64,000 bases of DNA from a virus. The DNA lies in IMG/VR virus record IMGVR_UViG_3300034356_001232, positions 7,255-71,254 of that record; one strand, given 5' to 3'. A program made the position numbers and the translations under genes. The notes under the pieces were generated by a model. That model was not told the origin of the DNA. It made no database searches and saw only the letters and a program-made list of their open reading frames with translations. Of the stretch, positions 21,288-61,092 are shown in pieces. Every line of letters begins with the position of its first letter. Position 1 is the stretch's first letter.

Positions 21288-21295
21288 ACTAAGAA

Positions 21296-23294: not shown

Positions 23295-23310
23295 CTGGTT
23301 TAAAGTAAAA

Positions 23311-23341: not shown

Positions 23342-23355
23342 TAATAAGGAGTGTT

Positions 23356-23997: not shown

Positions 23998-23999
23998 TT

Positions 24000-39922: not shown

Positions 39923-42900
39923 ATGGCAAAAAAACTTCAAGGAAATTTTAATTTCTTAGGACTAGATCCTTCGCAGAGTGCTTTAGATTCTAATGTAATT
40001 AAATCTGCAGTAGATAATGTTTTAGGCCAAGACCCTAATATATTTAAGAGTTACCACTCTGAGGAATTTTTAAGACCTCAAGTAGAGTATGCTAGATATA
40101 AAAATGAAATTGATCGTCAACGAAACCTAAGTGTAAACTCACTTAACTTTTTGGCTAAGGAAGCTGGATACGATGACGCACATGCTTCTAATCTCTACAA
40201 TCGAATTACTAGTATCTCTGATTTAGATTTTGATAAAGGTTCAGAAGAACTTAAAAATCTGACAAAAGAGTTAGACGACTTGCAGGAACAAGCTACTACA
40301 AATCAACATAGTGGGGTTGATTACTGGGCTGACTTTGCTGGTACTGTAGAATCATTATCTAGAGGTACTGCTAAGTTATTTCAATCAGATGATACTAATA
40401 AAAAATACGATTTAGAAAAATACTTAGGCAGTAATAAACCTGATTACGCTTCCTTGAAGGAGTATAGTACTCCCGAGGATGTGACTAAATATGTTTCTAA
40501 ACTAGTAAACCAACAACGTCAGTTGCTTGAGTCACGTAAGGTTGTAAGTGATTTAGGTATAGACAAGATGGTTAATCTACTTGAGCAAAGTAGTAAGGTC
40601 TCTAATAAACCTAATGCTCTTGACGATATAATGATGCCATTGTTAGAGACCAAGTTTAAAACACCTGGCTCAGACTTTTTCAGAGATCCAAACAGCGACT
40701 TAGCTTTGACTACTTTTGACAAGTGGGCATCTTATTGGAATCCTGAGATGGTTGGATCTAACATGCAGAAGAACGCTGAGTATGTTAAAGACTTCCAAGA
40801 TAAAATGCGTAGGACTGTTAAGAGTGATCCTACAAAATCTGTCTTTGACGAATCTGCTTTCTTGAAACATGATTTAGCATCAGAAGCTTTAGGTACTTAT
40901 AAGTTAGCAATTCAAAACGAATTGAATAAAACTCTGGAAGCCGCAAGACTCCAAGAAGAAAAAGCACCAACAGGAGTTAGTCCTAAGAACAATCCTCTTT
41001 ACAAGTCAAAGATTGAGAAGCTTAACAATGCTTTGAACATCGCAGTTCAGCATGAAAAAGAAATAGATAGTATCTATGGAGTACAGAAAGGAGATAGAAG
41101 CGGTGCATTGAATGCTTTGTATCATTCAGGTAAGGAAGCTATGGTAGCCGGAACTAATTTCTTGTTTAACCTAGCATTGTTAGGCAATTTACCTAAGACA
41201 GGTACTTATGATGCGAACACTACCTTAGCTTTAAATGCTGGTTATAAACCTGAAGTAATTGACTACGATAAATACGGGAATCCTGTTTTATCAAGTCAAG
41301 TATTCTACGAAACAAAAGCCGGTTCTAAAAAGAACTGGGGAGGTTTTTTTGAATCAGGTCTTCAGATTGTAGGAGATATGATACCTACTATTCTTCTGAC
41401 TAGAGGAGTAGGAGGCGCTGTACGTTCTGCTGCTTCTGCTGAAGCCGCTGCTTTATCGGAAGGAGCTTCTACTGCTGGTCTTGCTACTAAGACTCTTAAT
41501 GTTTATGACAAGATAAATAAAGTTGCAGTTCTTCCTAAGAAAGTTCCTTTAGTTGGAGGCCCTCTAAGAATAGCTGATAGGGTAGCAACTACTGCTTCTG
41601 TTTATACAACTGTGTACCCTCGTGTATACCAAGAAGAACTTAAGTGGGGAGGCAATGCATCTGAAAGAGCTAGACTAATGGCTTTCAATGAAGCTCTTAC
41701 GGAAGGATTAGGATTTCCCGAAGTCGGAGGTTTAAAGGTTACTGGATACCGAAGAGGTCTTGGTGCCGCAGCAAGAACAGCTACAGATGTTCCTTTGACA
41801 AGAACTCAACGTTTTACAAATTTTGCAAACGGAGCCGGATACTTTACCAAGACTGCTTTAAAGGTTAATCTTTTGGAAACTATGGAAGAGGAAATGGCCT
41901 TGTTTGGTGAGTACATGATTTCCAAAGGTTACGAAGAAGAGTACGATAGAGTAGGCAGACAGAAGACAGAACTTAATGACAGTACTATCATTGATACTTT
42001 TGTAGAGTCTTTCAAGGGAGGTTTGCTTTACAGTGGTCTGAATACAGGCATGCGTCACTATCAGATTACTCGTCCTGATGCATTGCGTGATTACGCTCGT
42101 TATGAGGCTGCGCAAAACCCTGAACTATTTAAAGCTAAGCTAGTAGCTGACTTTAGAAAGAATCCAGGAAGTATGACTCAGAAAGATCTACAGAATGGAA
42201 TTATTGAGATTGACAACCTAGCAAGTACATTTAAGTCATTGAGTTCTTTAGATAACCTAAAGGACTTGAATACTTTCTTAGACGACGAAGATGCTCGATT
42301 CAACTTGTTTACTAGGGCCGACCAAAGAAATACTTTGAGCATGATTGACTTTGAATCTCTAACAGACGAACAGAGAGAAGAGTTGACCAGTTACAAATTG
42401 ATGAGTGAAATCTCTGATAAAGGACTTAAAAGAGCAGACGAGTTAAAGCTTAGAGTGGCTGAGTTGGCTGAAAGAGCTAGAGAAGAAACATTAACTCCAG
42501 AAGAACAGGCGGAGTACATGAAGTCTCAGCAAGATTACTTTGCGTTGAAGCAGTTAAGTCGTTATAAGTATTTCAATAGAAGAGATTTATCTACAGAACA
42601 AGTTAAGTTCTTGACTGAGAATGGTATAATGACTGATAACTCATTCAACTTTACTCAGGAAGATTTGAATAAAATGATTTCTGATGTAGATACAGATATT
42701 CTTAAGACTGAGAAAAGAGCTTTTCAGTACGCTAGTATGACTGAGTCTCAGAAAAAACAGAGAATCAACCAAGCGTATGATGATAGGATTAGTTTGATAT
42801 CTCAGATGCAGAGTCCTGCCGAACTTAATAATTCATATAGTGCTATTAAGAGAGACTACGAGTATCTAGACCAAAACGTTGCGAATGTTAGCCAAGAAAT

Positions 42901-45900
42901 GATGGATAACAAGAAACGTTTAATGGAAGCTTACGGTGCTCGTTTTGATGAATTGACTGCTACACAAGAGAATGGTAGGAATGCTTTTGAAAACTCTATA
43001 GCTGAAGTTAGCTTAGAAGAACTCATCAATAGTAATGACTTGACTGGTTTGCATGACTTGGTTAGAGCACTTAGTAAAAACCAAGACCATGTTGATAGTG
43101 GATTCTTTAACATCATGCAGGAGAGCATTGGTATAGCTCACGCCACTATTATAGATAATCTTAGCAAGTTAAGTCCAGAAGCTAAGATGAATGCTTTGCT
43201 TCCTATCTTCGATAAGTTGGTTAAGGAAAACGTTAAGTCTTTCTACGAACCAGATGCACTTCGTGAAACTTTTACCCACGATGAAGGATTAAAACTAGAT
43301 ATCTCTAATGAAGAGTTTGAAGCACTTCGAAATAATTTGATGGAACTCCGTGGCAAAAGAAGAAGTGATTCTTTGGCTGCTACAGGTAGATTGGATAACG
43401 TAGATACTCCAGTAGTAGATCCTGCTAATCCTCCTTCAGACGAATTGTCTGAATTGGCTAATGCAGCTAGTGTTGCAAGTACTGAGGTAGATGAGGCAGG
43501 AGATTCTGAAAAGAAACTTAAAGAGAATGACTACTACAATCGTATCACGGCAAATAAAACTCCTCAACAAATTGTAGAGGTTATTAAGAACCGAATTAAT
43601 TCTCGATTCAACGCTCAAAGTAAAAGAGCAAAATCACTCATTAAGATTATTGATAATTATCTGGCTGATAAAGACCGGGTTAAATTTGATACCGAGTGGA
43701 AAGCAGTTGTAGAGGATATCCAGAATGAGATTGATAACCTACTTACAAGTAATGCTAAAAGCAAAAGAGCAGAAACCTTAACAGAAACTTTGAATGAAGC
43801 GGCTTTGTGGAATCGTTCCATGAAGAAGATGTTACTTCAGAATCCTACTACTACGTTTACTCCTAGTCCTACAGTTGTAGAGGAGGCTCCTGAAGGCCTT
43901 AACCCTAATGCACCTATAGAAGATGCTCCCGTAGTACTTTTAGAGTCTCAGGAGAAAGAACTAGAGCAACTAGACAGCGTACAACAAGCACGTAGGTCTA
44001 GATTGATGCAGTTAACCAGTTCTTTGAAGACAGCCGCTATTGAGTATGACGGTAAGAATGTAAGAAACTCTGACATAGCTGTAGCTCGTAGAGTAGCTCA
44101 ATTAGATTCTCTATCAGAAGACGGTGAGATTCAAACTAAGATTGTTAACCGTAGACAGTACTTAAGAGAAACTCTTGGTAAATTGTACCCTAACAAGTCT
44201 AATCAAGAAATTGAGGAAGACCTTCAAGCAATTAACCAATTCTTCACACAGACAGATATGACTGTAGATGTGTGGGATAGTTTGAATGATTCTCAGAAGG
44301 ATGAGTTCTTACAGCCTATCAATGATTTGCTTGGCAAACACTTCTTCAGTAACAACGAGTTTTCCTACTTCATTAAAAATAAAGGTAAGGGTCTTATAAC
44401 CCAACCTTCTGTTATTGTTACTGTTGCTGATGAGAAAGGCAAGGTAGCTTTGATTGATGGTTATCCTTTAGAGTTACAGTTTACTATTTCTGAAAAGAAC
44501 GCAAACAAAGCATGGCCTAATATTCCTTGGAGAAACTCTCAAAGAGTTGTAAAAGATGCTCAAGACTTTAGTATCAAAGAGGGAGATGTAATGAATGCTC
44601 ATAAGAAAGGTTACGAGGCTCGTGAGGCTTTGGTAAAGTATCTTTCTGAGAATGACGATGCAGATGTTATTGTGCCAGCAGAACTAACAGCAGGTGTACT
44701 TATTGGTCCCGAAGCATTCCAATTCATTGGTGAGACTACCGTAGGACAGTCTGTAAAACTAGAGGACTTTCAGTTGGCTGAGAATGCTGCCACAGCAATC
44801 TTTGGAAAACGATTTAAGTTTGACTTGGGTCGTCTGTACTATAACAACAACGGAAATCCATTGATCATTATGAACACTCAAATCAGTAAAGAAGATGCTG
44901 ATGTGTTGGCTGACTTGGTTTTCTCTAACGATGCTTCTGTAGTAAATCCTGTTGTTCTTAAAGAGTATCTAATGTCTATCATGAACCAGATAGATCCTCA
45001 GAGTCGTATTCTTTTATTTGACGGAGATACTTATGCCTTTACTAACGCTGAAGGTCAGATGGTTTATCAACTTGACCAACTCTTGAAACCAACATTAACT
45101 ACTGGTAAGAAGGGAAGTTACAAGCACAGAACTTTGGGTAAGGAAGAATTTTCTCAACTACTCCAAAAGATGTACTACAAAGTAGACAAAAAGTATCTAC
45201 AAGACGGAGAGCGTGAGGGAGATAGATTGCCTAGATTCAAAAGAGTACAGGATGCAGAAGGTAACATGACTATCACTATGTCAAATGAAAGTTACTTAGA
45301 CTATCTTAAAAGGACTCATCAGTTCCCAGTAGACAAGGAAGACAACTTACTTACTTTGGGTAACAAGAATCTTTACTTAGACTCTGCTGCCGTAGAACAG
45401 AAGGCTACTACAAAGAAGACTAGTGCTCCTGCTCCCGCAAAGAAAACTCCTACTAGTACTAGGAGTGGAAAAGCTGATATAGAAAGAAGAAGACAAGAAG
45501 AGTTAAAACCTTATGATGAGAGAGATACAAAAAGCTTAGAAGCTATTATGCCTAACAATCCTAATCATCCCACTTTTAAAGTAGGTATGAAGTTTAGTCT
45601 GGGTATGAATATTTTGGTAGAAGATACATTATTTGCTGATAATTATGATGGTAGAGAAGATTCCTATGAAGCAATCACGGTTATTATGTCACCCGCTGAA
45701 TTTGGAGAAGATGGTAAAATGACCAAAGCAGCAAAAGTAAAAGTAACTGTATTTAATACAAAGGAAGATGCTGATAAAGCAATACAAGAAAAGTATGAAA
45801 CAGTAAAATCTAAAGTTGGACAAAAACAACAAGCAATTAATGCTAAATATGATGCAGAACTAGCTGCTTTAGAAACTCCTACTAGACCAACTCTTACACC

Positions 45901-46489
45901 TAAAGTAAATGATGAGTTGCAGATTATACCTACAGACCAAGTAGAAAGTGCATTAGGTCTTACTCAGCCTATCAATGCTGATAAGTACAATGCTGCCGTG
46001 GCTGCTATGCGGATTAATCCTGCAAACATTGTAAACATTGAAGTGATTACTAAAGACCCACAGACCGGTCAACTTGCAACCTCTGATTATGAAGTAGGTA
46101 GTGTATTTGCAAATACTTTCTTCTACCGTATTACAGTTAAAGTAGGTAATACAAACGCTGCAGTATTTGCCTTTAAGGGTGGTCTAAGAGATAATCCTAT
46201 GTCAATACAGGTAACAGGAACAGGATCTAATACTAAGTTTAATGTAGTGTCTAACGAAACTACTGCACCTGAAGTAGAAGAGAATGTCCCAAGGGGTAAG
46301 ATGTCCCTAGAAGACTTGAGTGCAGCTGTAGAGGAAACTCCTCAGACTCCTGCCAACTCTGTTGTATATGATTCTATGGATAACTCTCAGCAAGAGGAGG
46401 GTAAGAAGAACCAAGAAGATTGTAAACCTTCTGCAGGTAATCGATTCAAAACTTTCGGTAAGAACAAACCCAACAGGTTTAACTTTTAA
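39923..46489 (+). CDS. Giant ejection protein 1 (2188 aa)
   Basis: Helical, with G/A-rich hydrophobic segments (~aa 400-620). First of the three giant genes. Confidence 0.8.
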   Translation: MAKKLQGNFNFLGLDPSQSALDSNVIKSAVDNVLGQDPNIFKSYHSEEFLRPQVEYARYKNEIDRQRNLSVNSLNFLAKEAGYDDAHASNLYNRITSISDLDFDKGSEELKNLTKELDDLQEQATTNQHSGVDYWADFAGTVESLSRGTAKLFQSDDTNKKYDLEKYLGSNKPDYASLKEYSTPEDVTKYVSKLVNQQRQLLESRKVVSDLGIDKMVNLLEQSSKVSNKPNALDDIMMPLLETKFKTPGSDFFRDPNSDLALTTFDKWASYWNPEMVGSNMQKNAEYVKDFQDKMRRTVKSDPTKSVFDESAFLKHDLASEALGTYKLAIQNELNKTLEAARLQEEKAPTGVSPKNNPLYKSKIEKLNNALNIAVQHEKEIDSIYGVQKGDRSGALNALYHSGKEAMVAGTNFLFNLALLGNLPKTGTYDANTTLALNAGYKPEVIDYDKYGNPVLSSQVFYETKAGSKKNWGGFFESGLQIVGDMIPTILLTRGVGGAVRSAASAEAAALSEGASTAGLATKTLNVYDKINKVAVLPKKVPLVGGPLRIADRVATTASVYTTVYPRVYQEELKWGGNASERARLMAFNEALTEGLGFPEVGGLKVTGYRRGLGAAARTATDVPLTRTQRFTNFANGAGYFTKTALKVNLLETMEEEMALFGEYMISKGYEEEYDRVGRQKTELNDSTIIDTFVESFKGGLLYSGLNTGMRHYQITRPDALRDYARYEAAQNPELFKAKLVADFRKNPGSMTQKDLQNGIIEIDNLASTFKSLSSLDNLKDLNTFLDDEDARFNLFTRADQRNTLSMIDFESLTDEQREELTSYKLMSEISDKGLKRADELKLRVAELAERAREETLTPEEQAEYMKSQQDYFALKQLSRYKYFNRRDLSTEQVKFLTENGIMTDNSFNFTQEDLNKMISDVDTDILKTEKRAFQYASMTESQKKQRINQAYDDRISLISQMQSPAELNNSYSAIKRDYEYLDQNVANVSQEMMDNKKRLMEAYGARFDELTATQENGRNAFENSIAEVSLEELINSNDLTGLHDLVRALSKNQDHVDSGFFNIMQESIGIAHATIIDNLSKLSPEAKMNALLPIFDKLVKENVKSFYEPDALRETFTHDEGLKLDISNEEFEALRNNLMELRGKRRSDSLAATGRLDNVDTPVVDPANPPSDELSELANAASVASTEVDEAGDSEKKLKENDYYNRITANKTPQQIVEVIKNRINSRFNAQSKRAKSLIKIIDNYLADKDRVKFDTEWKAVVEDIQNEIDNLLTSNAKSKRAETLTETLNEAALWNRSMKKMLLQNPTTTFTPSPTVVEEAPEGLNPNAPIEDAPVVLLESQEKELEQLDSVQQARRSRLMQLTSSLKTAAIEYDGKNVRNSDIAVARRVAQLDSLSEDGEIQTKIVNRRQYLRETLGKLYPNKSNQEIEEDLQAINQFFTQTDMTVDVWDSLNDSQKDEFLQPINDLLGKHFFSNNEFSYFIKNKGKGLITQPSVIVTVADEKGKVALIDGYPLELQFTISEKNANKAWPNIPWRNSQRVVKDAQDFSIKEGDVMNAHKKGYEAREALVKYLSENDDADVIVPAELTAGVLIGPEAFQFIGETTVGQSVKLEDFQLAENAATAIFGKRFKFDLGRLYYNNNGNPLIIMNTQISKEDADVLADLVFSNDASVVNPVVLKEYLMSIMNQIDPQSRILLFDGDTYAFTNAEGQMVYQLDQLLKPTLTTGKKGSYKHRTLGKEEFSQLLQKMYYKVDKKYLQDGEREGDRLPRFKRVQDAEGNMTITMSNESYLDYLKRTHQFPVDKEDNLLTLGNKNLYLDSAAVEQKATTKKTSAPAPAKKTPTSTRSGKADIERRRQEELKPYDERDTKSLEAIMPNNPNHPTFKVGMKFSLGMNILVEDTLFADNYDGREDSYEAITVIMSPAEFGEDGKMTKAAKVKVTVFNTKEDADKAIQEKYETVKSKVGQKQQAINAKYDAELAALETPTRPTLTPKVNDELQIIPTDQVESALGLTQPINADKYNAAVAAMRINPANIVNIEVITKDPQTGQLATSDYEVGSVFANTFFYRITVKVGNTNAAVFAFKGGLRDNPMSIQVTGTGSNTKFNVVSNETTAPEVEENVPRGKMSLEDLSAAVEETPQTPANSVVYDSMDNSQQEEGKKNQEDCKPSAGNRFKTFGKNKPNRFNF

Positions 46490-46512
46490 CGAGCAAACTT
46501 TTATTAATAAAG

Positions 46513-46520
46513 TATATTTG
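46513..46520 (+). promoter_or_regulatory. -7 element TATATTTG before vRNAP gene
   Basis: Exact motif 7 nt before the ATG. No -33 match. Confidence 0.5.
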
Positions 46521-46527
46521 TAATACA

Positions 46528-49500
46528 ATGATTTGTCCTAATCTAACTAATTCCACTATACGTAAACAATTCAACAGCCTTGTTGATGTTGTGGGTGAAG
46601 ATTTTGCCTACTACCTATGGGATAAAAATAATGGTCTTCCATTATCACAACAAACAACAGGTAAAGGTGCTACAGAAAGTGTTTCTGCAAACCCTCTATA
46701 TGCTAACCTGGAAGGATTGTACGAAGGAGATAGTCGTAAGGCTACCTTAGCTGTAGCTATTACCTTTGGGAAAAACTTTCAAAAGAAGTATGCTGGATTT
46801 AATAAGATGTCTGTAGTCGACCAAGTAAAGTCAATTACAGATTATATTTTTAATAGTGATAAATCTTTAGAAGAAATCGCTGCTGGATACATTCGTAGGG
46901 CTAACCAAATGAATGTACAAAAGGGTCGTGCTATTAGTGTGAACCAAGAGCAAGTATCCCGTGAAGATCTCCGCAAGGATCCAAACTCTGTAGTAAATAA
47001 GATAGAGGAGGTTACCGGCTTAGATAGACTAGAGGCTTACAATAATTTCAAGAATAGTCCTATCAGTAGGTTTACAAGTTTTGCCAACATGCACAATGTG
47101 GTTAACAGCGGTGCCTATGCTACTTGGACAAAACACGCTTTGACTCTTTACAAAGGTTCTGACTACACTGATATCTACCACGAGTCTTGGCATGAATTCT
47201 CACAGAAGTATTTAACTCCTGCTGAGAGAGCTGCTTTGTATCAAACCATCACAAGTCGTGAAGGTAGTTTCAAGATAGGTAATATGTCTATCCCCTACAA
47301 TGCATTGACTCAACGACAAGCTGAAGAAGTATTGGCAGAGGAGTACAGAGCATTTGCCTTGAAGAAATCAAAAGACGTTACTGAGGTTGCTAAGGTTGAG
47401 AAACCTGTTGCTAAACTGTTTGACCGTATTTACTACTTCTTGCAGTCACTCTTTAATGGTGTGACTAAAAGAGGCAACTTATCTCCAGAGGATTTAGCAC
47501 AGAGTAAAGTTACTGAGGTATTTGAAAACCTTTACTCAGGTAAGATCTACACCTACAGAAGGTCTGAGAAGAACATAGCAGAAACTATTCTTAACCGTAC
47601 CAAGTCATTTACTTTGGTTACTGAGGATGAGAAGGGTAAACATACTATGGACTACGCAGCCAATGATGGATTTGAGATTCTTAACTTCATAGATTATAGT
47701 TTGTACGCTAAGATGAAAGCTGATGGCCGTAAGATTAGTGATTTGCTCGATGAGAGTATCCGTAATCAGTACGTACCTGAATTGTATAATGCTGTACGTG
47801 AAAACTTCCGTCAAGCAATTGCTGAATACGAGGCTCAACTTCAAGTTGCTATTAATAAGAAGGACGCAGGTACTGCAGACATTCTTCAAGATAGAATAGA
47901 TAAGCTAAAGCCAATCGTATACAACGATGAGACTTGGTTGGATACAGTAGATCACCACCAATCATTTGTACAAGGAGACTTGTTCAAAGTGCAATCTGAA
48001 ATTACAACTAAAGACGACACTCAAGAAAGTGTACAGGAAGATACTATTCCAGGAGAAGAAGGTAAGGACGTAGGTCAATATGCAGATAGATCTGCTGTTA
48101 ACCCACTTCAGTACTACGACCCTTATGTAGTAGAGTTGATTCGCAGTCTTCCAAACAAACAAGTGGTTGCTGGTCAAGTTATAGTAGTTACCGGAGATTC
48201 TCTAGGTCTTCCTACCAATGGAGATTTCCTATACAACAAGAACTTACTACAGGATAAACTTTCTGGTGTTACCAACTACGAAGAAGCTATCAAGATTATT
48301 GAAGGTTTGGTAGAGTACAATCCACAGATGCGTGATTTGCTTGACATGCTTCCTAGTCCTAAGCAAACTGAGTTGACTCCTGAAGAATTACTCCTTAAGA
48401 GTCAGTTTATACAGTCTATGTCTATGCCTCAAGTTACTCCTTTCCGTCTGAAAGCAGAGAAGATAGCTCGTATCATAGAAACAACCAAGGGCAATAAAGA
48501 AGTATCTGGTCTTGGATTCAATACTTTCTTTGTGAGTACCTTAACACAAGATGCTCTTTTAGAGTTCTTTGATAACGAGTTCCAGCAAAGTGCTTTGCGT
48601 GAACACCGTTCAGAGAATGCAGAAGAAGGTAGAAAGTTTGTAAAGAGTGCGCCTAATGGATTAGAGTTTGCTACATTCTCAATAGAGTCTGCACTTACTT
48701 CTTACAAGTTGAGTCCTCAGTCTAGCACTAAGCAACTGTTTGACTTTATGCGTGATGCTTTTGGCATTGACCTGTATCCTCAAAACATGGCTTCCTTCTT
48801 CGATAAGCAAGGAAACATTAGACAGACCTTATCTCCTTACTCAGCTACAACTGAAGACGCTATGCGTAAATCTGCTTTGGCTGCTTACAATAAGATGGTC
48901 TTGTACAACATGATCAACAAACTTCCCGTTAAAGAATATAGGAACTTGTTGAACAAAGTTAACAAGGCTGTTGAAACCCCTGCACGTACTTTCTTATCTG
49001 ATGTACGTAAAGACATTTCTAGTTTGTTGCAAGAAGGCATCAAAGAACTAAAGGGTAATACCGCTATCACAGAAAAAGATACCGAGGCTACCATTGCTTA
49101 CAAAAACGTACTTCAACACTTTAACGAGAACATAGGTAACCAGACTCTCGCTAACGAAAGACAATTACTATTTAAAGCTGCTGAGAACTTTTACTACGTA
49201 ACTAAATCTGCTTCATTCATCAACGATGAAGGAAACATGGAGTGGTCTATCCGTGAGTGGCAACACCTAGTATCTGAAGTTAGTAACGTTAACAATGTTC
49301 AGAACGTAAAAGATCTTTCTGGTCACCTTAATTTAAACAGCAATGACTTTGTAGGAAACTTTGATAAGTCAGGTTCATTTGTAACCAACTCTGCTCTACT
49401 GAATAAACTATTCAATCAATCAGGAACCCGTAGAAAGAATCTTAGTAAAGAGTTTAGAAAGATGGAGGTAGTTAACTTTACTGGATACACTCCTGGTGTA

Positions 49501-52500
49501 GATGGTAAAAAGACTATTAACCTTAACCCTGAAGATAAACTTATTCAAGATTTAGGTGCTTACCTTAAGGAAGGCGTGTTTGAGAATATGCGTCCCGGCT
49601 CTAAGGCATCTTCCTACGCTACTCGTATGAGTGGTTCCCGTGCCGAGAGATTGTACTACGATATTAATTCTTTCGGATTAGATTCTGAAAGTGGTGCTGT
49701 AATGCTTCCTGGAGAAGTAGTAGAGCAGTTCTACAAGTATCTTAAGTTTGAGTTGTCTCGTGCCTACACAGATACCAATGGGAAAGAAAAACTTACCGCT
49801 AAAGAAAAGCGTGGTGGTCAGTTTATCATATTCAACGGAATAATTCCTAAAGACATAGAGAAGCAAATGCTTGACACTATCAAGAGTAGTGAGTTGTCTA
49901 AAGAGGAAACTGTTGATCAGGTAATGAAACTTATGCCTTTGGCTTCGTTTAAAAGTTATCTAGAGCCTTTCTTTAATGCTGAGGTTCAGACGTTTAAACT
50001 AGAGTTGGCTGAGGCAATTAACTTAGGTCAGATCGAGAAGAATCCCAGAGATTCTAGCACTATGAGTTTGGAGGACAGGTTTAAAACTTTATTCCCTGAT
50101 ACTCCTAACCTTGATATAGTACTTGCTGACTACATCACAAACTACAGTACGCATCAGATTGAATACATGCACCTGTTTGTAGGGGATCCTTCTAACTTTA
50201 ACATCAATACTGATGACTTAAAGCAAGATAACTGGCGTGAGGTATTCAAGCGTATCGGTGCATCTATATCTCCGGGCCGTCAGCCTAAGATAGATACCCA
50301 AGACTTAAATACTTTTAACGGCAATAAGAAGCTTAGTAGAGGTCTTGAGTCATTGGTAAGTCCAAACACAGTAAGAAACTACGGCACTACATTTAACTAC
50401 GTTCAGTTCAAAGACATTAATACTTTTGAAACTCCTGAACAAAGAGTTGTTTTTGCTCGTCAGATAATTACAAACTATGCCTCTCATCTATCTACTGAAG
50501 ATAAAGGTAAGTTGTCTATGGACGAATACATTGCTAAAGCCGAAGACTTACTTGGAGATAATATTGCTGCAGTACTTAACCAAAAGAAAGAGTCTGATGC
50601 CCAGGCATATATGAACCTTGACTTTATGCGTTTCTACCTACACTCTATTGGTGAGTGGGGACCAAAACTAGAAAAAGCATACAAGCATGAGGTTAAAGTT
50701 ATGGAGAAGATACTTGCGTATCGTCAAACCAATGATCCTACAACCTACCAAGAAATCAAAGACTTGATTGCTCAAACTGATATGGGTATCTTGACTTCTT
50801 TGAAATTAGGTTACTGGGGTTCTCCCACTAACAACACCAACTATGTAACACTTGGTAAGTACTCTGTGTTCCCTATGAGTCCGTCAGTTGTATTTGAAAC
50901 AGACTTAGAGGAAAGAGCATTGGATATGTTTAAGAGTGGCGTTGACTTTGCTACGTTTGATTCGGGTAGCAAGATGTCTTTACCTGTAGATTCTATTGAC
51001 TTCTACAGAAAAGAAACTGTAGTTGATGCTTACGGTGTAGAGAAAGAAGTACGTGCTATCAACCCTATTACAAAAGAAAGCATAGTTGAGTTCCCGATAG
51101 AAGGTCTTAGAAGACAGCAGTACATCGCTCCTAAGTATAAGAACGAGGCTACTCTATCTACTCAGTTGGTTAAGATTCTATTCTCTAACTTCTATGAGGA
51201 TGGTCAACTAGCCGGTGAGTATGCAGGTAATTCTGTTATTGGTCAAAAGATAGAGAGAGCAAGACAAGCATTCATCAATAACTTGAATGTGGTTGTTGAA
51301 GCAGAGAAAGCCAAAATCTATACTAGGATTGGTGCAGAGATGAAGGACGGTAAACTTGTCAGCTTTGATACAGAGATGTTTGCTGATTGGATTACTTCTG
51401 AATTTGATAAGAAAGATATTCCACAGGCAGTTTATGACTATCTGTTGGTAGAGAATAACCGTTTTGTATTCTCATTGGACGTGGCGCCACAACGTGCTTT
51501 GTTTGAAAGTGTACTCTCTAGTGCATTGAGCAAACGTGTAGTTCGTCCTAAGATGTTTGGTGAGGCATACATTCAGTTGGCTTCTAGTGGTTTCAACAAG
51601 ACCAATACTAGATATACTAAGCCAACAGATGCTGATGTAGCAAAATACGGTGTAGGTGGTTTGCGTGACTATGGTCGCATAGTTAACGGTAAACATCAAC
51701 CGGCAGATATTAAGCTTGCCTTTAATCCTAAGAAGCATGCTCCTTTACTTAACTTGTCTTACAACGGAGAAGTAATAGGAACTCTAGATAGATTGAATGA
51801 AGCCTTGATGGACGATAATTGGGTAGAGCAAAACTCTGCAAAGATTACTATCGTAGGTGTTCGTATTCCTGTACAGGCTTTGAACTCTATGGAGTTTTTG
51901 CGTGTACGTGAGTTCTTACCTGAGAAGGCCGGTCCGATTATCATTGTGCCTCCCTCGATTGTAACCAAGTCAGGATCGGATTTTGATATAGATAAGTTGT
52001 TCATGTACGAGCCAGAGATGGACGACGAGGGCAATCTTATCCTAACTAACAAAGAGTTCCAAGCTAATCCTGCTGCTGTTTATGAGTTTATTAAATTCAG
52101 ACAAGAGAGCAAAGTAGAATTATCTAGAGCTATCAACGTACTCAAGAACAAGAAGAAAGAATTTATCGACAGGTTCTCTGCTGATAAAACCATTCAAGAT
52201 GTAATGAGTTCGTTTATTGCGAATAACAACATGGTGTTTAAGGTTTCCAAGTCTAAGAAGACAGACAAGGAAGAGTCAGCCATCATGGACAATGCACTTA
52301 CCCAAGCAATCGTATTGGAGCAAGCATTGGCAGCGCAAACGCAAGACCCTGAAATCATTGAGTTAACTAAGACTATTAGTAATCTTAAGAAAATCTACCA
52401 GAAGTATGAGAAGTACTCACCTGGAAGAATTAAATCAGGTTCCTCTAACGAAGTAATTGCTGCTATCTCTGATGTTCTTTCTGAGCCATCTGTGATGAGT

Positions 52501-55188
52501 ACTTTCTTGAAGCCTACTGACTCTCCTATTTTGAAAGGATTGGCTAAGTATTACGATGATAAGTATCGTATGGGTACCGGTAAGATTAAATCATCTAGGA
52601 TGTTTACTCCTAGTGTATCTCTACAGATCTTTAGAGAGAATGCTACCGGTAAAAAATCTTTGGGTATTGATGCTAAGACAAACGCTTTGCATAAACTCTA
52701 CCAGCAAGTAGGTTTGCGTTACACTGAAGAGTTCTTCTTGAACAACTTCTTGATGCGTACCAACAAAGATGCCAATGGTATTGTACTTGGTGGTTTATAT
52801 GAGGCTAATAACCCATACAGGGAAGGCGAGAATAAATACTTAATCTCAGATATTATTAACGAGTTCATCAATGGACACGTTGACATCGAGAAAGAAGACT
52901 GGATTAACTACTTCAACGCAGACAAAGCAAGAACTGCTACTATTCTTCAGATGGTACTCAACGGTATGCCTATCGAGGATGCTATCTTGCTTGTTAACCA
53001 ACCTATTGTTCACCACTACTTAAAGAACAGAAACCTCAATCAAACTGCTAGACAGTTAGGTTTTTCTGGTAAGCGTATGGGCGACTACCTTAAAGAAGGT
53101 TTGACTGCTGTTGGCTTAAAGAGTTATCTTCAGTACGATAATGGTAAACTCTCTATTCGTAAAACCATTAGAGAGATGATGTCTGATGACTTGTTCAATA
53201 AGCATATCAAAAATTTCAATGAAGAAAATTATACACCAACTACCGATACCTCTAGAAATAGTTATGATCTATTGCTCAGTACTATTGACGAAGGTGACAA
53301 CCGTGTTAAGGCTATTGCTCAGTTAGCATTCTTAACTCAGTATGCTTTGATTGAAGAGCAGAACGAAAACTTGCTTAACTTGACTTCAGTTATTGACTTT
53401 AACACAGCTTCTTACCGTAACTTGAATGACTTCCATAAAGTAGCACCTGCATTGCGTGAGGCACAAAACTTCTTTAACAAAGAAGCATTAGATAAGATTG
53501 TTTCAAGTAGCGTAGTGTCTCCGTTTAACGTAACGGAAGATGCTATTACTATCGGTACGCAAGTGTTTGATGTAATAGGAAGCAAAGAGTATCAAGAGTT
53601 CTTGAATCTTTACATTGATCAGTATGGTAAGTTCTGGGATCCGGACACTACTGTAACTGAAGTAAACAACTTGAATAGTGCTGTTATGCATGCATTCATT
53701 CAGAAGTTTACTGAACTGAGTGGCGTAGATTACTACCAAGAGTACGGACCTAAGTCTAAATACTTGACTAAGGGTGCTCAAGGTAACTTGGCAAGTCAAT
53801 ACAATAAACTGTTCAAGCAGTTTGCAAAGTACGATACTAACCTTGCTTCTTTTGCACGTAGGAATCTATTCTTAAAGAATTTTAGAAAGCAAGACGTAGA
53901 AGGAACTAACAAGTTCTATATAGCGATGCAGACTAACGAGCGTGATCCTGTTACTGTCGATGCTATTCAGAAATCATTTGAAGATGGCTTAAACTATAAC
54001 TACTCTCAATCTATTGAGGTTAACGGCCAAACAATTGACTTGAACGAATCTGTAAGACAGTTCTTCCAGGACGTAGCAAATGCTACAATACTCGGACAAG
54101 GTTTTGCCATTAAGTTCCGTAGTATCCAACCTTATCTTCCTGTAAACTCCTTGGAGTCTTTGTGGGGAGCTGTAGAAGAACTTAGAGATATTAAAGGCAA
54201 GTTGTTTGCGGACGAGTCTGAATTTACCGACGAACAAAAGGCAGAGTCTAAACAAGGTCGTATTAACTTCTTGTCTTTCTTGAATCAGGTAATGAAGATA
54301 CATGCTAAGCAAGCCTTCTCACCTGCCAGTAAATCACTTAACCGATTAAAGTATTTCCCTGATTACTTGAGAGAGTCTGTAGCTAAAGGTATAGTTATAA
54401 CTCCTAAAGCCAAAGGGATTGCTGCAATGCTTGTACCTAACACTACTGAGGCTAAGCTTAAGTCTAAGTTTCCTGTCAAGTTCGAAGGTAAAGAGTACTC
54501 AGATGTTATGGCTGCGTTTAACGCCAACAAACTTCCTTTCATTATTGAGGGACGTAGGGAGAACGCTTCTATCTTGAGTGAGTTAATGACTAGCATTTTG
54601 ACCGAGCGTTTCCGTCAGTATCCACGTATGTTTGGTCTTATCTCTGACTTAGGCGGTGTTGCCCTGCTTGAGATGAGTATCTACAAAGGCATGGGTTACG
54701 AGTGGCGTACAAGCACAACTAGTCCCGGTAACTACATCAAGTCCCTAATCAATGCTTACAACAACGTAGAGGCTGAGTTGACTCCTATTTGGGAACAAAT
54801 GCAGGCAGACAAAGCACAGGCTATGACAGAGGAAGATATGCCAGACACATCACTTGATGATCAAGCTTACCTAGACTACCTCAATAAACAAGGAGGAGAA
54901 GAGTTCTCAGGTCCATTCATTGCTATTGAAGATGATGGTTCTATGGACTTGGAAGATACCGGTCTTAAGTTAAAGACACCTGCTGTTGTAGAAGAACCTA
55001 TGTACGATACGGGTATGATAGATAAAAGTAATAACGAGATTAAGTTAAAGTATAGTGAGGTCACTCCAGCTAGGTTAAGAGAACTTATGCCACAAGCATC
55101 TGAGGAAAAATTAAACTTTATTGTTGCTAACATCCAACAACAGATGAGAGACCAGAACCCAGGATTTGACTTTACAAGTACTTGTTAA
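46528..55188 (+). CDS. Virion-packaged DNA-dependent RNA polymerase (two-barrel, crAss type) with N-terminal zincin domain
   Basis: RIPVQALNS...GSDFDIDKLF (DFDID 51979-51993), SDAQAY, SGSK. HESWH zincin at 47179-47193. Confidence 0.92.
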   Translation: MICPNLTNSTIRKQFNSLVDVVGEDFAYYLWDKNNGLPLSQQTTGKGATESVSANPLYANLEGLYEGDSRKATLAVAITFGKNFQKKYAGFNKMSVVDQVKSITDYIFNSDKSLEEIAAGYIRRANQMNVQKGRAISVNQEQVSREDLRKDPNSVVNKIEEVTGLDRLEAYNNFKNSPISRFTSFANMHNVVNSGAYATWTKHALTLYKGSDYTDIYHESWHEFSQKYLTPAERAALYQTITSREGSFKIGNMSIPYNALTQRQAEEVLAEEYRAFALKKSKDVTEVAKVEKPVAKLFDRIYYFLQSLFNGVTKRGNLSPEDLAQSKVTEVFENLYSGKIYTYRRSEKNIAETILNRTKSFTLVTEDEKGKHTMDYAANDGFEILNFIDYSLYAKMKADGRKISDLLDESIRNQYVPELYNAVRENFRQAIAEYEAQLQVAINKKDAGTADILQDRIDKLKPIVYNDETWLDTVDHHQSFVQGDLFKVQSEITTKDDTQESVQEDTIPGEEGKDVGQYADRSAVNPLQYYDPYVVELIRSLPNKQVVAGQVIVVTGDSLGLPTNGDFLYNKNLLQDKLSGVTNYEEAIKIIEGLVEYNPQMRDLLDMLPSPKQTELTPEELLLKSQFIQSMSMPQVTPFRLKAEKIARIIETTKGNKEVSGLGFNTFFVSTLTQDALLEFFDNEFQQSALREHRSENAEEGRKFVKSAPNGLEFATFSIESALTSYKLSPQSSTKQLFDFMRDAFGIDLYPQNMASFFDKQGNIRQTLSPYSATTEDAMRKSALAAYNKMVLYNMINKLPVKEYRNLLNKVNKAVETPARTFLSDVRKDISSLLQEGIKELKGNTAITEKDTEATIAYKNVLQHFNENIGNQTLANERQLLFKAAENFYYVTKSASFINDEGNMEWSIREWQHLVSEVSNVNNVQNVKDLSGHLNLNSNDFVGNFDKSGSFVTNSALLNKLFNQSGTRRKNLSKEFRKMEVVNFTGYTPGVDGKKTINLNPEDKLIQDLGAYLKEGVFENMRPGSKASSYATRMSGSRAERLYYDINSFGLDSESGAVMLPGEVVEQFYKYLKFELSRAYTDTNGKEKLTAKEKRGGQFIIFNGIIPKDIEKQMLDTIKSSELSKEETVDQVMKLMPLASFKSYLEPFFNAEVQTFKLELAEAINLGQIEKNPRDSSTMSLEDRFKTLFPDTPNLDIVLADYITNYSTHQIEYMHLFVGDPSNFNINTDDLKQDNWREVFKRIGASISPGRQPKIDTQDLNTFNGNKKLSRGLESLVSPNTVRNYGTTFNYVQFKDINTFETPEQRVVFARQIITNYASHLSTEDKGKLSMDEYIAKAEDLLGDNIAAVLNQKKESDAQAYMNLDFMRFYLHSIGEWGPKLEKAYKHEVKVMEKILAYRQTNDPTTYQEIKDLIAQTDMGILTSLKLGYWGSPTNNTNYVTLGKYSVFPMSPSVVFETDLEERALDMFKSGVDFATFDSGSKMSLPVDSIDFYRKETVVDAYGVEKEVRAINPITKESIVEFPIEGLRRQQYIAPKYKNEATLSTQLVKILFSNFYEDGQLAGEYAGNSVIGQKIERARQAFINNLNVVVEAEKAKIYTRIGAEMKDGKLVSFDTEMFADWITSEFDKKDIPQAVYDYLLVENNRFVFSLDVAPQRALFESVLSSALSKRVVRPKMFGEAYIQLASSGFNKTNTRYTKPTDADVAKYGVGGLRDYGRIVNGKHQPADIKLAFNPKKHAPLLNLSYNGEVIGTLDRLNEALMDDNWVEQNSAKITIVGVRIPVQALNSMEFLRVREFLPEKAGPIIIVPPSIVTKSGSDFDIDKLFMYEPEMDDEGNLILTNKEFQANPAAVYEFIKFRQESKVELSRAINVLKNKKKEFIDRFSADKTIQDVMSSFIANNNMVFKVSKSKKTDKEESAIMDNALTQAIVLEQALAAQTQDPEIIELTKTISNLKKIYQKYEKYSPGRIKSGSSNEVIAAISDVLSEPSVMSTFLKPTDSPILKGLAKYYDDKYRMGTGKIKSSRMFTPSVSLQIFRENATGKKSLGIDAKTNALHKLYQQVGLRYTEEFFLNNFLMRTNKDANGIVLGGLYEANNPYREGENKYLISDIINEFINGHVDIEKEDWINYFNADKARTATILQMVLNGMPIEDAILLVNQPIVHHYLKNRNLNQTARQLGFSGKRMGDYLKEGLTAVGLKSYLQYDNGKLSIRKTIREMMSDDLFNKHIKNFNEENYTPTTDTSRNSYDLLLSTIDEGDNRVKAIAQLAFLTQYALIEEQNENLLNLTSVIDFNTASYRNLNDFHKVAPALREAQNFFNKEALDKIVSSSVVSPFNVTEDAITIGTQVFDVIGSKEYQEFLNLYIDQYGKFWDPDTTVTEVNNLNSAVMHAFIQKFTELSGVDYYQEYGPKSKYLTKGAQGNLASQYNKLFKQFAKYDTNLASFARRNLFLKNFRKQDVEGTNKFYIAMQTNERDPVTVDAIQKSFEDGLNYNYSQSIEVNGQTIDLNESVRQFFQDVANATILGQGFAIKFRSIQPYLPVNSLESLWGAVEELRDIKGKLFADESEFTDEQKAESKQGRINFLSFLNQVMKIHAKQAFSPASKSLNRLKYFPDYLRESVAKGIVITPKAKGIAAMLVPNTTEAKLKSKFPVKFEGKEYSDVMAAFNANKLPFIIEGRRENASILSELMTSILTERFRQYPRMFGLISDLGGVALLEMSIYKGMGYEWRTSTTSPGNYIKSLINAYNNVEAELTPIWEQMQADKAQAMTEEDMPDTSLDDQAYLDYLNKQGGEEFSGPFIAIEDDGSMDLEDTGLKLKTPAVVEEPMYDTGMIDKSNNEIKLKYSEVTPARLRELMPQASEEKLNFIVANIQQQMRDQNPGFDFTSTC

Positions 55189-55193
55189 TAGAT

Positions 55194-55201
55194 TATATTT
55201 G
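55194..55201 (+). promoter_or_regulatory. -7 element TATATTTG before giant gene 3
   Basis: Exact motif in a 21-nt intergenic gap. Confidence 0.5.
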
Positions 55202-55209
55202 TAAATAAC

Positions 55210-58200
55210 ATGGCTAGACATTGCACATTAGATTTTCATAATCCTGTAACAGGGAAAGAGCATCACTCTCTTTTGGGTTATGTCTTGAACCAATACGGTG
55301 TACCTAAGGAACAGGTACAATCTATTCTTGATAAGGGCTTTTCTTACATAGTAAGTAACGGAGTTAAGTCTTGGGGTAAAAATAGAACTGAGAGTCCTTT
55401 CATTGAACCAAGCATAGAAGAATTACTAGCTTTAACCAAAGCAAATACTTCTCCTGGATTAATTAGTTACGTATCCAAAGTACAGAATTTTTACGACAGT
55501 AAGAACTTATCAATAGATACTAAGCTAAACATTAATCAGTTACACAGAATTATTCAAGGTGCCAATGATTTGAACATTGCTCTTGAGTACGAGGTAACTA
55601 ATCCTGATGCTCCAATAGAAGAACAGACTTACCGTGTGTATCCTATGGAAGAGTCTGAAGAGAATATGTTAGTAACAAACAATGCTTTGTTCAAACAGAT
55701 TGATTCTTACTACGCTGCCTTAGGAAAGACTCGCCTAGTGGATAAGATGTCTAAGTATTTAGATTTAGGCAATCCTAGCATCTACAACACTATGCGTAAG
55801 ATTCTTAACGATGATACAACTACGCAGTATGAAAGAGATTTGTTAAACACTTTGCTTGGTGTACTTGACTTAAACCCGTCTATCAAATTAAACTTAAGTT
55901 ACGACTTAGCTATATCTAAAGAAGCCGGAGAAGTTACTTTTCCTGCAGGTGTGTATGATCTGAAAACAAACACCATTAGTATTTATTTATACCCTGCTCA
56001 CAATCTAAATGACGAGGACTTTAAGCGTTTGTTGATTCACGAAACAATACACGCAGTTATTGCTTCTACCTTAGAAAACCCTCAGACCACTGCGGAGAAA
56101 GTATTTGTTTCTGAGATTGGTAGAATATGGGCGTACTACAAACAAAAGTACAGTGACGTAGAACCTATAGGTGATTTTTATGGTCTAAGAGATCAGCATG
56201 AGTTTGTTTCTGAGTTTCTGACTAATCCTACCTTTAGGGCTAGTTTAGAGGAAGCAGCTCCAGAAGTACACGGTAGTACGTTTCAATCTATAATTAACTT
56301 TTTCAAGAAGTTACTTGGAACCTACTTTGCTAAGTACAACAAACAAGTATCTGAGGATTACGTACAAGACTTGATTGAGAATATGTTTGAGACTATTCTT
56401 AACAATCAACAGTTAAACACCTCTTTGGTTTACACAGGTAACCAGGCTTTCAACTCTGAAGGTAACAGCAAGAACTACAAACAGTTTTTGGAAAGTATGC
56501 CGGGAGTATCAGGTCGTGAGGTAGAAATCTTTTACGAAAGACTACGTGAGTTCTTAGAGAGTGACTCAGTCAATTGGAATACCGTACTACAGAATGCTCG
56601 TCAAAACGGAATCAATGCGTTTAGCCTTGAAGAAGCCCGTGAGACTTTAAATAATATTGACCTTACTGACATCCCAGTAACTGATTTGCAGAAGTCATTT
56701 GAGAGTTTGGTTGCTCACCTATACGAAACTACTATGTTTCTTAGAGGCGTACAAGCTAACCTATCAGATGCACAAAGAAACAAGACGCTTAGTCCTAGAG
56801 ATTTATACTCTCGTTCTTACCACGCTGCTAAGATGGGAGAGTTCTTTAAGGACTACATAACTCAGTTTAGAGATACTATGTATCCTAACGGGCAAATACC
56901 GCCCGCTAACACTGTGATTGCAAAGTACATGAATAACATCAATGCAATCTCAGATAGTATTATTGGTACGCTTAACACTCAAGCAGCAAAAGCTGTAGCA
57001 GGTAGACTTGCTGAGGAAATGTTCCCACAAACAAAAGCTATTCGTAAAGGACTCGAAGAAAACATTCAACGTCTCCAGGATGAGCTGGTTATGTCTACTA
57101 CTGATAGAACCAAACGTTTACTTAATGCTAAGATTAAAGAAGAGAAAGAGCGTCTTTCTATCTTGGCTACTCCTGAGAACCTTGAGAAAGCATTACTTGG
57201 TACGTTAGATGTAGAAGCTAAATCAAGTACAGGTAAACTTGCATCTCACGTAGGAGCTATGTTTGAGTCTGCTGCTATCTCAGGTAACCTTGTAAGCGGA
57301 ACTCTAGACTCATTGATTAATAATCTTTGGTCAAAGTCTACTCAAGAAGCTATGCAGTTCCAAGGCCAGATGAAAGTCTTGGCTGACGAACTTTCTGCAC
57401 ACTTAAGTTCTAAAGGAATCAATGCTAATACCGGACTTGACTTCAATAAAGTATTTAGCCGGTTCCTGAAAAGAGTAACTGTTCTTGAGATAAAGAACGG
57501 AAATCTCGTAGAACGTGAAACCCTTGTACTCCAAAGTAGGATGGATGAAGTTTCTTACACCAATGATTGGAATCGTAAGAAGGTTAACATCCTTAAACTA
57601 GAAAATATTAAGAACCGTACTCCTCAACAAGAACTTGAACTTGAAAATCTCATCACTGACTTGACTGACTTTGAAGAGAAACACTTGGAGAGTTATTATA
57701 CAGACGAGTACCACCGTATTCAGTCTTTGTTATCACCTGTTGCTAAAGCAAGAAGAGATGACATCATAGACAAGATGCGTAAGATTCAGTTGAGTCCTAA
57801 TCAAGGAGAGAACTCAGAAGAAGACTTGGATAAGTTGGATGACTTAAAAGCCCAGCTAGATGCTCTTGAGCAAGAAACTGATGAATACGGTGTGATTAAG
57901 TCTGAAGAAGATTTACAAATTGCTCGTAGTATCCGTGAGTGGAAGCAAGAACGTTCTGCTGCTAACTTGATTAAGTATGAGGTAACTCCTAAGAACAAAT
58001 TAATCTTCCAAGAACGATACAACATTGTCAAGGAAAACGTCAAACAAACTTTTTCTGATTTAGAGAATGCCAAACTCGAAGGAGACGCACAACAAGTAAT
58101 TGTATCTCAAGCTAAATACGATAAGGCTGTTAAAGACCTAGAGTCATTTAAGAAAGCCAACGTAGTTAAGAGAATCTCTCCAGAGTTCTATGAGGAACGT

Positions 58201-61092: not shown

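Follow-up and report, generated by a model that had tools for sequence, protein, structure and literature searches.

Why should giant phage proteins that have been purged of almost all cysteine (Cys) keep this residue at precisely those ends that face one another? This question is raised by a 64,000-nt stretch of the virus record IMGVR_UViG_3300034356_001232 (positions 7,255 to 71,254), here called the window, where Cys-free open reading frames (ORFs) of 580, 988 and 539 aa are followed by three giant ORFs on the plus strand, encoding P1, a middle protein resembling virion RNA polymerases (RNAP) and P3 (Table 1). These three proteins together contain only 4 Cys in 7,034 aa, all of them terminal, and both the translations and the codons put them at C2167 of P1, at C3 and C2886 of the RNAP-like protein and at C5 of P3, right to the base where a preliminary description of this DNA had placed them. 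Judging from the sequences, it is fairly probable that these residues engage in intermolecular disulfides that join the proteins head to tail, which would turn the ejected set into a reversible "polyprotein".

The scarcity of Cys is itself a property of this gene block. All window ORFs of at least 150 aa were translated for Cys counting; among the 9,141 aa of the three giants and the 580-, 988- and 539-aa proteins there are 4 Cys (0.044%), whereas the other listed ORFs of the window have 117 in 9,780 aa (1.2%; binomial P 1e-41). The naive probability that all four Cys fall into terminal windows, defined post hoc as the first 8 and last 30 residues, is 6.9e-8. The preliminary description had set this depletion against Cys-rich tail proteins and likened it to the Cys avoidance of ejected N4 proteins. 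Both points are borne out, as the tail-region ORFs hold 1.6–6.6% Cys and N4 gp50, gp51 and gp52 contain 0 Cys, with Schitoviridae behaving likewise (PMC11445570). It had further treated the three smaller proteins as Cys-free cargo; the lack of Cys holds for all three, and the 580-aa ORF is at most a candidate cargo protein. A 154-aa ORF lying amid these Cys-free ORFs has 2 Cys, C123 and its last residue (...RRRWKC), and the ORF after it has no N-terminal Cys, leaving the terminal residue with no evident partner. At the opposite extreme to the cargo, Cys clusters open some tail-region proteins (MAKCCQTN..., MGHCVDCY...), in which the Cys content rises to 6.6%.

The arrangement seen in the window recurs in related genomes. 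Two scans of viral contigs in IMG/VR yielded 55 loci whose RNAP is 21–100% identical to that of the window. To define junctions, all plus-strand ORFs from the first to the last giant ORF were taken if they reached 100 aa, and seven inserted ORFs (six GIY-YIG or LAGLIDADG homing endonucleases and one ferritin-like protein) were removed. A junction was scored as paired when the upstream protein had a Cys among its last 30 residues and the downstream protein had one among its first 8. Such a pair is found at 88 of the 92 junctions between consecutive chain proteins in the window and the 55 loci, and in 41 of 45 clusters formed at 60% identity. The four unpaired junctions have no Cys within 8 residues of either end, and none of them (L006, L009, L034 and L013) resembles an intact boundary between two proteins. 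The terminal Cys are therefore conserved and co-occur in pairs, as the preliminary description expected of tethered proteins, with essentially no half-pair. The only one occurs at L013, where a LAGLIDADG ORF interrupts the gene and a Cys lies by chance 28 residues before its end, and the upstream proteins of that locus show no homology to P1. In L009, the P3 gene is interrupted and homology resumes in another frame; the insert extends the N-terminal exon as a 204-aa ORF, has no Pfam match and may be an intron or a mobile insertion. Four further junctions, located at contig edges or beyond the size rule, are also paired. At the dereplicated outer boundaries, the outer end carries a Cys in 2 of the 26 proteins that begin a chain and in 2 of the 25 that close one, and all four cases are chain junctions overlooked by the size rule. 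Hence, the first protein of a chain is without an N-terminal Cys and the last one without a C-terminal Cys.

An origin by chance, or as an artefact of ORF and start-codon calling, draws some force from the dependence of the N-terminal position on the start codon chosen and from the fact that the terminal windows were set after viewing the data. Even at a proteome-like 1% Cys, the probability of 41 paired junctions in 45 is 2e-67, a value that overstates the evidence because the junction clusters share phylogeny. Moreover, the same N-termini appear in independent public gene calls and in the GenBank annotation of ten phage records, and the N-terminal residues are conserved as protein, M1, I2, C3, P4 and N5 of the RNAP being invariant in two alignments. 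This explanation is already contradicted by the surveys and retains a negligible probability. In raw counts, the interior of the chain proteins contains 106 Cys in 350,145 residues (0.030%), and the terminal windows of 148 chain proteins contain 181. By cluster, the N-terminal Cys is residue 3 (22), 4 (7), 5 (9), 7 (1) or 8 (2), and the C-terminal Cys lies 0–8 residues from the end in 35 clusters and 17–26 residues from it in 6. Since the position of the Cys varies in this way and TGT and TGC are both used as codons, selection acts on the amino acid.

The pairs also follow the architecture of the genes. A fusion of P1 with the RNAP, in ORFs of 3,700–4,900 aa, is found in 21 genomes; the region between the P1 and RNAP homology blocks is Cys-free in 19 of these fusions and holds a single Cys in the other two, which are close relatives. 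The loss of junction Cys upon fusion, proposed as a check in the preliminary description, is thus observed. The RNAP-like protein of the window starts with an N-terminal MICPNLx module. This module (MxCPNLSDP..., about 45 aa) is absent from the fusion point in the fused genomes, where it is found instead at the start of the P3 homologue; the protein that precedes this homologue ends in Cys. Chains of 4–6 proteins show a pair at every junction (L048, L047, L053, L034, L054, L067 and L069), e.g., L048 with proteins of 2422, 3725, 730 and 1991 aa or L047 with 2601, 3741, 252, 252, 289 and 1987 aa, while two-protein systems have one C-terminal and one N-terminal Cys. Pairing in the order of the gene products, as first read from the three giants of the window, consequently extends from the shortest to the longest chains.

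The additional members of the longer chains are small proteins with Cys at both ends, some of which carry an ART-PolyVal ADP-ribosyltransferase (ART) domain above the Pfam cut-off. From their sequences, they look like injected effector modules strung into the chain. Two others gave weak, sub-threshold GNAT matches. In contrast to chain proteins, the GIY-YIG and LAGLIDADG ORFs between chain genes have internal Cys and no terminal ones. Each of these free-standing homing endonuclease genes occupies precisely the gap between two chain genes, and they are possible drivers of giant-gene splitting and cassette exchange. Simple fission was considered for L047 compared with L048 and for L017 compared with L019, and was discarded; since only the terminal modules are shared, with other sequence in place of the middle parts, these loci differ by cassette exchange and not by a clean split. 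In L054, a ferritin-like ORF of 158 aa (Dps/rubrerythrin type) lies between two chain genes, again with internal and no terminal Cys. In the genomes of the fused lineage (L028–L053 group), the last chain protein, e.g., that of L030, has a conserved internal Cys pair 13 residues apart, some 235–260 residues from its C-end, and one or two internal Cys are conserved in the fused P1+RNAP; a metal site or an internal disulfide are candidate roles for them.

The collection of loci was complemented by surveys at the protein level. Residues 1–1200 of P3, searched against 1.84 billion representative proteins, gave 92 matches. A Cys is present in the first 8 residues of 35/35 matches with E<=1e-10; among those that also reach at least 1200 aa, the N-terminal Cys is found in 32/32, a Cys in the last 30 residues in 0/32, and the N-terminal Cys is the sole one in 20. 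Considering all matches of at least 1200 aa, 55 of 64 have the N-terminal Cys, and in the remaining 9 the zincin region alone is matched and there are zero Cys. These nine Cys-free giants of 1,247–3,634 aa (P0055, P0065, P0068, P0071, P0072, P0075, P0076, P0083 and P0090) are probably ejected polyvalent proteins of other phage groups in which Cys is totally suppressed as in N4. At the other side of the junction, 19 of 21 P1 homologues have exactly one Cys, 20–27 residues from the C-end. Loci fetched via two other P3 subfamilies keep the junction rule, and a locus search with the P3 representative P0030 returned no loci.

Annotated junctions in ten phage records carry the pair in 12 of 14 cases, and the cultured phages phi14:2 and PhiCrAss001 obey the rule exactly. 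In phi14:2, each junction Cys is the sole one or one of two in its own protein, and in PhiCrAss001 the pairing is kept despite gp47 being encoded on the opposite strand. At the 22606/22607 junction of cr108_1, Cys occurs on neither side; with its 290-nt gap and non-ATG start, it looks like a break. The rule is kept in every Crassvirales lineage of the sample, to which Crevaviridae and other groups do not belong, and it applies to most of the gut Crassvirales examined. The giant genes of cr53_1 (L059), cr109_1 (L063) and cr273_1 (L065) contain many in-frame TAG codons, with 70 in cr109_1 gp53, and no other type of stop, which agrees with a recoding of TAG in these Suoliviridae; these TAG-rich genes retain the junction Cys. 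Two smaller cargo proteins of Intestiviridae, gp47 of L057 (BK010471; 857 aa, Cys 1 residue from the C-end) and "gene49" of L060 (OQ198719; 757 aa, Cys 10 residues from it), have a single Cys each and are followed by a protein without N-terminal Cys; homodimerization or another partner may account for them. Thioredoxin genes are annotated in p-crAssphage (L057; gp39 and a truncated gp37), cr108_1 (L058) and cr111_1 (L064), and a thiol-disulfide oxidoreductase of this kind might influence whether junction disulfides are made or broken. The thioredoxin family PF00085 was not found in the record of the window, a result that is uninformative for a 71-kb fragment about 60% complete.

The terminal thiols might have a different function, in which neighbouring proteins would stay unlinked. 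The Cys could let a packaging factor, a chaperone or a thioredoxin-like protein capture the chain protein in a transient covalent bond, sense redox state and so activate the proteins on entry, join copies of one protein as homodimers, or act as a cysteine switch. The thioredoxin genes fit such a role, as does the lone C-terminal Cys in a smaller cargo protein of two gut phages. An HExxH motif lies about 215 residues after C3 in the RNAP of the window and about 270 residues after C5 in P3, and a Cys3 next to an HExxH domain recalls the cysteine switch of matrix metalloproteinases. The MxCPNLS module is, however, also found on proteins whose HExxH domain lies elsewhere. More generally, a separate thiol role leaves unexplained why the first protein never has an N-terminal Cys and the last one never a C-terminal Cys, and why the two sides of a junction are present or absent together, are both brought by added proteins and are both lost on fusion. 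We regard it as unlikely, and independent Cys roles, homodimerization or cyclization of the RNAP fail to predict the pairing and the bare outer ends; cyclization is, in addition, ruled out by the two-protein systems. A heme-regulatory "CP" motif was also discarded, many N-terminal tags having no Pro after the Cys. Pairs that are complete or missing altogether, outer ends without Cys, and pairs that come with each added protein and go with each fusion thus favour a heterotypic link from the C-terminus of a protein to the N-terminus of its successor.

In the window, PHROG matches to a large terminase, a portal, a major head protein and a large virion structural protein define a structural block, and these matches combined with gene order give a crassvirus context with two cargo proteins upstream of the giant ORFs. 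By position, the 988- and 539-aa proteins match cargo C1/C2 of PhiCrAss001, and their counterparts in relatives are Cys-free in every case. In blastp, the RNAP-like protein shows weak homology to phi14:2 gp66 (E 7e-12) and PhiCrAss001 gp50 (E 2.5e-16) and also aligns with p-crAssphage gp44, and P3 matches the zincin gp65 of phi14:2 (E 5e-16), with HExxH at 277 in P3 and at 245 in gp65, and is a homologue of PhiCrAss001 gp49 too. Because of the homology of the RNAP and P3 to proteins of these phages, P1, RNAP and P3 correspond to gp67-gp66-gp65 of phi14:2 and gp47-gp50-gp49 of PhiCrAss001, which have been found in virions (GenBank notes; PMC10172136; bioRxiv 10.1101/2020.03.07.982082). This presence was determined by mass spectrometry for phi14:2 and PhiCrAss001 only. 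The 2886-aa protein is considered a putative RNAP from its DFDID motif and this weak BLAST homology, DFDxD being the catalytic motif of crAss virion RNAPs (bioRxiv 10.1101/2020.03.07.982082). Scans of the six cargo and giant proteins against Pfam and PHROG gave no family above threshold, from which it follows that the phage is a divergent member of Crassvirales; a sub-threshold ferritin match in Pfam was treated as spurious. Searches of PDB chains with the RNAP sequence and its profile gave no match, and the homology to phi14:2 gp66 is seen solely by direct blastp. The HESWH of the RNAP-like protein is presumably a zincin-like motif.

When the C-terminal 150 aa of 14 RNAP sequences are aligned (mean column identity 29%), no column but that of the terminal Cys is invariant, and C5 of P3 is one of 13 invariant columns (32 representatives, 20% mean column identity), preceded by a residue that varies (H, A, G, F, N or T). 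An AlphaFold2 (AF2) model of P3 with a mean predicted local distance difference test score (pLDDT) of 80 has residues 1–7 as coil followed by a beta-hairpin, and a model of the RNAP N-terminus (pLDDT 71) has residues 1–8 as coil ahead of the first helix. Both N-terminal Cys are thus predicted to lie in flexible tails, before the first element of secondary structure. A co-fold of the N-terminal 200 aa of P3 with the C-terminal 150 aa of the RNAP gave a score of 0.01 (mark 0.32), with an uncertain fold for the partner itself, and weighs neither way on binding.

A disulfide is the simplest link compatible with these data because there is one Cys per terminus and no conserved co-ligand, because the purge of other Cys fits the avoidance of mis-oxidation, because intermolecular disulfides occur in PhiCrAss001 tails, and because AF2 puts both N-terminal Cys in coil. 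The neighbours could alternatively be held by a metal clasp, in which thiolates bind a bridging Zn, Fe or Cu ion and two chains may together supply four Cys. Such a clasp would show the same pairing and the same tracking of gene architecture, it could form in the reducing cytoplasm at assembly, which is hard for a disulfide, and some N-termini have a His beside the Cys (MARHC, MPRHC). Against it stand the single Cys of each terminus with no other conserved ligand adjoining, as illustrated by the RNAP C-terminus, the changing residue before C5 of P3, and the variable spacing from the ends, while the purge of other Cys is better accounted for by mis-oxidation; we consider a metal clasp improbable. 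Intramolecular Zn ligation of the junction Cys, named in the preliminary description as a condition that would speak against its proposal, is unlikely, since many chain proteins hold a single Cys in 1,300–2,400 residues.

A peptide bond is also conceivable, the termini being remnants or parts of a split-intein-like splicing or ligation system that would give a true polyprotein. Such systems are suggested by Cys that sit where two neighbouring gene products would meet and by the homing endonuclease genes of the junctions. In inteins, the reactive residues are Cys1 and the +1 residue, and the sites observed here, 0–26 residues from the upstream end and residues 3–8 downstream, are the wrong ones, with unconserved flanks. 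Furthermore, no Hint or intein family was found by Pfam (E<=0.01) in P1, the RNAP, P3 or ten small chain proteins, including Hint halves at the two termini. The PhiCrAss001 proteins are reported as separate species of 262.5, 154.5 and 276.9 kDa (PMC10172136). Splicing is therefore given a very small probability.

With the disulfide as the favoured link, the following sequence of events may be proposed. P1, the zincin- and RNAP-containing protein and the zincin protein P3 are depleted of Cys, like the ejected proteins of N4-like phages, with one Cys retained at each end facing the next protein. In the virion, the near-C-terminal Cys would bond to the Cys at residue 3–8 of the following protein, and P1, RNAP and P3, in relatives also small effectors, would be joined into a linear, unbranched chain, a post-translational and redox-reversible equivalent of the fused Crassvirales polyproteins. 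This chain would be able to thread the portal and the tail channel because its links are located at the extreme termini. Tail constrictions of less than 50 A in PhiCrAss001 require partial unfolding (PMC10172136), and terminal links yield an unbranched thread suited to them. The whole set could then be packaged or ejected together in a fixed order, and thiol reductants of the host cytoplasm would separate the proteins. We infer the disulfide, its timing, the order of ejection and the reductive release.

Several points weigh against this proposal. Firstly, we infer the bond itself from a sequence pattern, and virion assembly takes place in the reducing cytoplasm, so the bond would have to form later, inside the capsid; gut crassviruses, in addition, inhabit anoxic surroundings. 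Secondly, the junction clusters are phylogenetically non-independent. Thirdly, the first loci were gathered with patterns including VGEDFAY, which is part of the N-terminal module, and that set is therefore biased towards genomes with this module; the P3, P1 and phage-record surveys are free of this bias. Finally, gut phages are less regular: cr273_1 has Cys3, yet in the protein upstream the Cys closest to the junction lies 49 residues before the end, gut phages are richer in internal Cys than environmental lineages (8 in p-crAssphage gp44 and 14 in cr273_1 gp35), and a lone near-C-terminal Cys with no evident partner occurs in a smaller cargo protein of p-crAssphage and Rudgehvirus.

A broader extension of the disulfide proposal, which we put forward tentatively, is a modular string of beads, in which any cargo gene with a short N-terminal Cys tag and a C-terminal Cys would have its product linked by disulfides into a thread that is ejected ahead of or with the DNA and that reduction dismantles, activating its parts. 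Different N-terminal Cys tags are found (MxCPNLS..., MxCxxTYxGxxY... and MxxxC[IV]Ixx.NPxxG). Effectors such as ADP-ribosyltransferases could be added, swapped or split off, sometimes at homing-endonuclease insertions, with co-delivery kept, and such a system would be an alternative to polyvalent fusion proteins that acts after translation.

The suppression of Cys is already known for N4-like phages, and the retained junction Cys are new. No description of junction Cys in crassvirus cargo was found in the full-text literature searched, supplements and subscription-only papers aside; in the available text, the word "cystein" is absent from PMC10172136, and both "cystein" and "disulfide" are absent from bioRxiv 10.1101/2020.03.07.982082 and PMC5512222. 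The matter concerns phages reported as the most abundant human gut viruses, for which packing and mutual interactions have been named as the factors by which the order of ejection is "likely to be controlled" and for which reduced and non-reduced virion mass spectrometry of PhiCrAss001 has been published (all PMC10172136). For the packing and ordered passage of about 700 kDa of RNAP-associated proteins through a narrow tail, a Cys pair offers a simple and testable mechanism. If true, it would explain how giant genes can be freely fused, split and interrupted with no loss of function, it would add to Cys avoidance a second rule by which the few Cys left are connectors, and it would point to a naturally occurring tag by which foreign cargo might be added to what a phage ejects.

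A separate observation concerns the spacers between the giant genes. The motif TATATTTGTAA precedes the RNAP and P3 starts in identical form, and a third exact copy lies elsewhere in the window. Allowing up to one mismatch, the window contains 8 matches where 3.2 would be expected, a number attained in 1 of 100 shuffles. We take the motif to resemble the Bacteroidota -7 promoter element TAnnTTTG; if it is a -7 element, each giant gene may own a promoter.

Table 1. Features of the window, of related loci (positions within the locus named) and of the junctions in phage records; a slash separates consecutive proteins
Feature	Location	Strand	Remarks
Tail-region ORFs	20077-31518		Cys-rich
Tail-region proteins with initial Cys clusters	20739-23224		
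TATATTTGTAA, third exact copy	23334-23344	+	just upstream of the start of the ORF at 23356
Cys-free 580-aa ORF	32832..34574	+	no Pfam or PHROG family
154-aa ORF	34571-35035		2 Cys
Two Cys-free proteins, 988 and 539 aa	35326..39918	+	directly upstream of P1
P1, first giant chain protein, 2188 aa	39923..46489	+	sole Cys C2167; no N-terminal Cys
P1 C2167 codon (TGT)	46421..46423	+	21 residues from C-terminus; C-side of junction 1
TATATTTGTAA motif	46513..46523	+	4 nt upstream of RNAP start codon
RNAP-like middle giant, 2886 aa	46528..55188	+	only Cys are C3 and last residue C2886
RNAP C3 codon (TGT)	46534..46536	+	N-side of junction 1 (MICPN...)
HESWH (HExxH), RNAP-like protein residues 218-222	47179..47193	+	H218, E219, H222 and E223 invariant; no Pfam match
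DFDID, RNAP-like protein residues 1818-1822	51979..51993	+	invariant in RNAP alignment
RNAP C2886 codon (TGT)	55183..55185	+	ends ...TSTC, then TAA; C-side of junction 2
TATATTTGTAA, identical copy	55194-55204	+	5 nt upstream of P3 start
P3, last giant, 1960 aa	55210..61092	+	HExxH at 277-281; sole Cys C5 (MARHC); no C-terminal Cys
P3 C5 codon (TGC)	55222..55224	+	N-side of junction 2
ART-PolyVal	L017:18541-19524		42.9 bits against cut-off 31.2
ART-PolyVal	L047:20695-21450		51.1 bits against cut-off 31.2
ART-PolyVal	L053:18323-19111		38.1 bits against cut-off 31.2
GNAT, weak sub-threshold matches	L047:19269-20024; L053:16897-17667		
GIY-YIG with NUMOD3	L047:20018-20695; L053:17661-18323, 19108-19749; L034:8384-9064; L024:10639-11178		
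LAGLIDADG	L013:6740-7465		
Probable homing endonuclease	L067:9073-9717		judged from N-terminal sequence only
Ferritin-like ORF	L054:18155-18628		
Last chain protein with internal Cys pair	L030:17562-23339		also in relatives
Unpaired junction, L006			in-frame stop within continuous homology
Unpaired junction, L009	L009:18602-19716		about 960-nt insertion after P3 residue 51
Unpaired junction, L034			overlapping frame break, 2678/275
Unpaired junction, L013			gene interrupted by LAGLIDADG ORF
phi14:2			gp67 (...NTIC, last residue Cys) / gp66 (MAC..., C3; ...QECK, Cys 1 from end) / gp65 (MSC..., C3)
PhiCrAss001			gp47 (...LRCNS, Cys 2 from end) / gp50 (MSKRC..., C5; Cys 8 from end; plus C1334) / gp49 (MAKKC..., C5)
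p-crAssphage			gp45 (...SFSCM) / gp44 (MSC...)
Rudgehvirus			...YTCS / MAC...
cr53_1			...KKECK / MQC...
cr108_1			...NLCK / MANVC...
cr109_1			...FICNL / MYKC...
cr111_1			two junctions, pair at both
cr118_1			...KHCKGE / MICPNLSNPK...

Among known systems, the Schitoviridae are similar in having a giant virion RNAP and co-ejected proteins that are nearly Cys-free (N4 gp50–52; DEV gp71–73). Their ejection proteins contain 0.00075% Cys against 0.865% in the proteome, which has been explained by passage through the periplasm, and the available text of the DEV paper treats total Cys suppression only (PMC11445570). In these phages suppression is total and one giant carries the functions, whereas the crassviruses keep one Cys per junction side and spread the functions over 2–6 proteins. 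PhiCrAss001 virions themselves contain intermolecular disulfides in the gp57 dimer, the tail hub, the ring and the portal-vertex proteins (PMC10172136). Those bonds rivet a static, Cys-rich tail and portal vertex, while the junction Cys sit in mobile cargo that is otherwise Cys-free.

The fused crAss polyproteins combine the same modules (zincin, RNAP and ART) in one polypeptide, e.g., in P1+RNAP proteins of 4,000–4,900 aa; the fusion of three RNAP-module proteins in some phages (bioRxiv 10.1101/2020.03.07.982082) and the concept of polyvalent proteins (PMC5512222) have been described. Fused polyproteins are held by peptide bonds and are thought to be cut by the zincin protease, whereas the proteins considered here are separate products that would be joined post-translationally via their terminal Cys. 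A further parallel lies outside phages. In AB-type translocated toxins, one interchain disulfide tethers chains that cross a narrow channel unfolded, and reduction in the cytosol frees the active chain. These toxins derive from one nicked precursor with internal Cys, in contrast to the separate genes, terminal Cys, up to five serial links and phage capsid of the chains proposed here.

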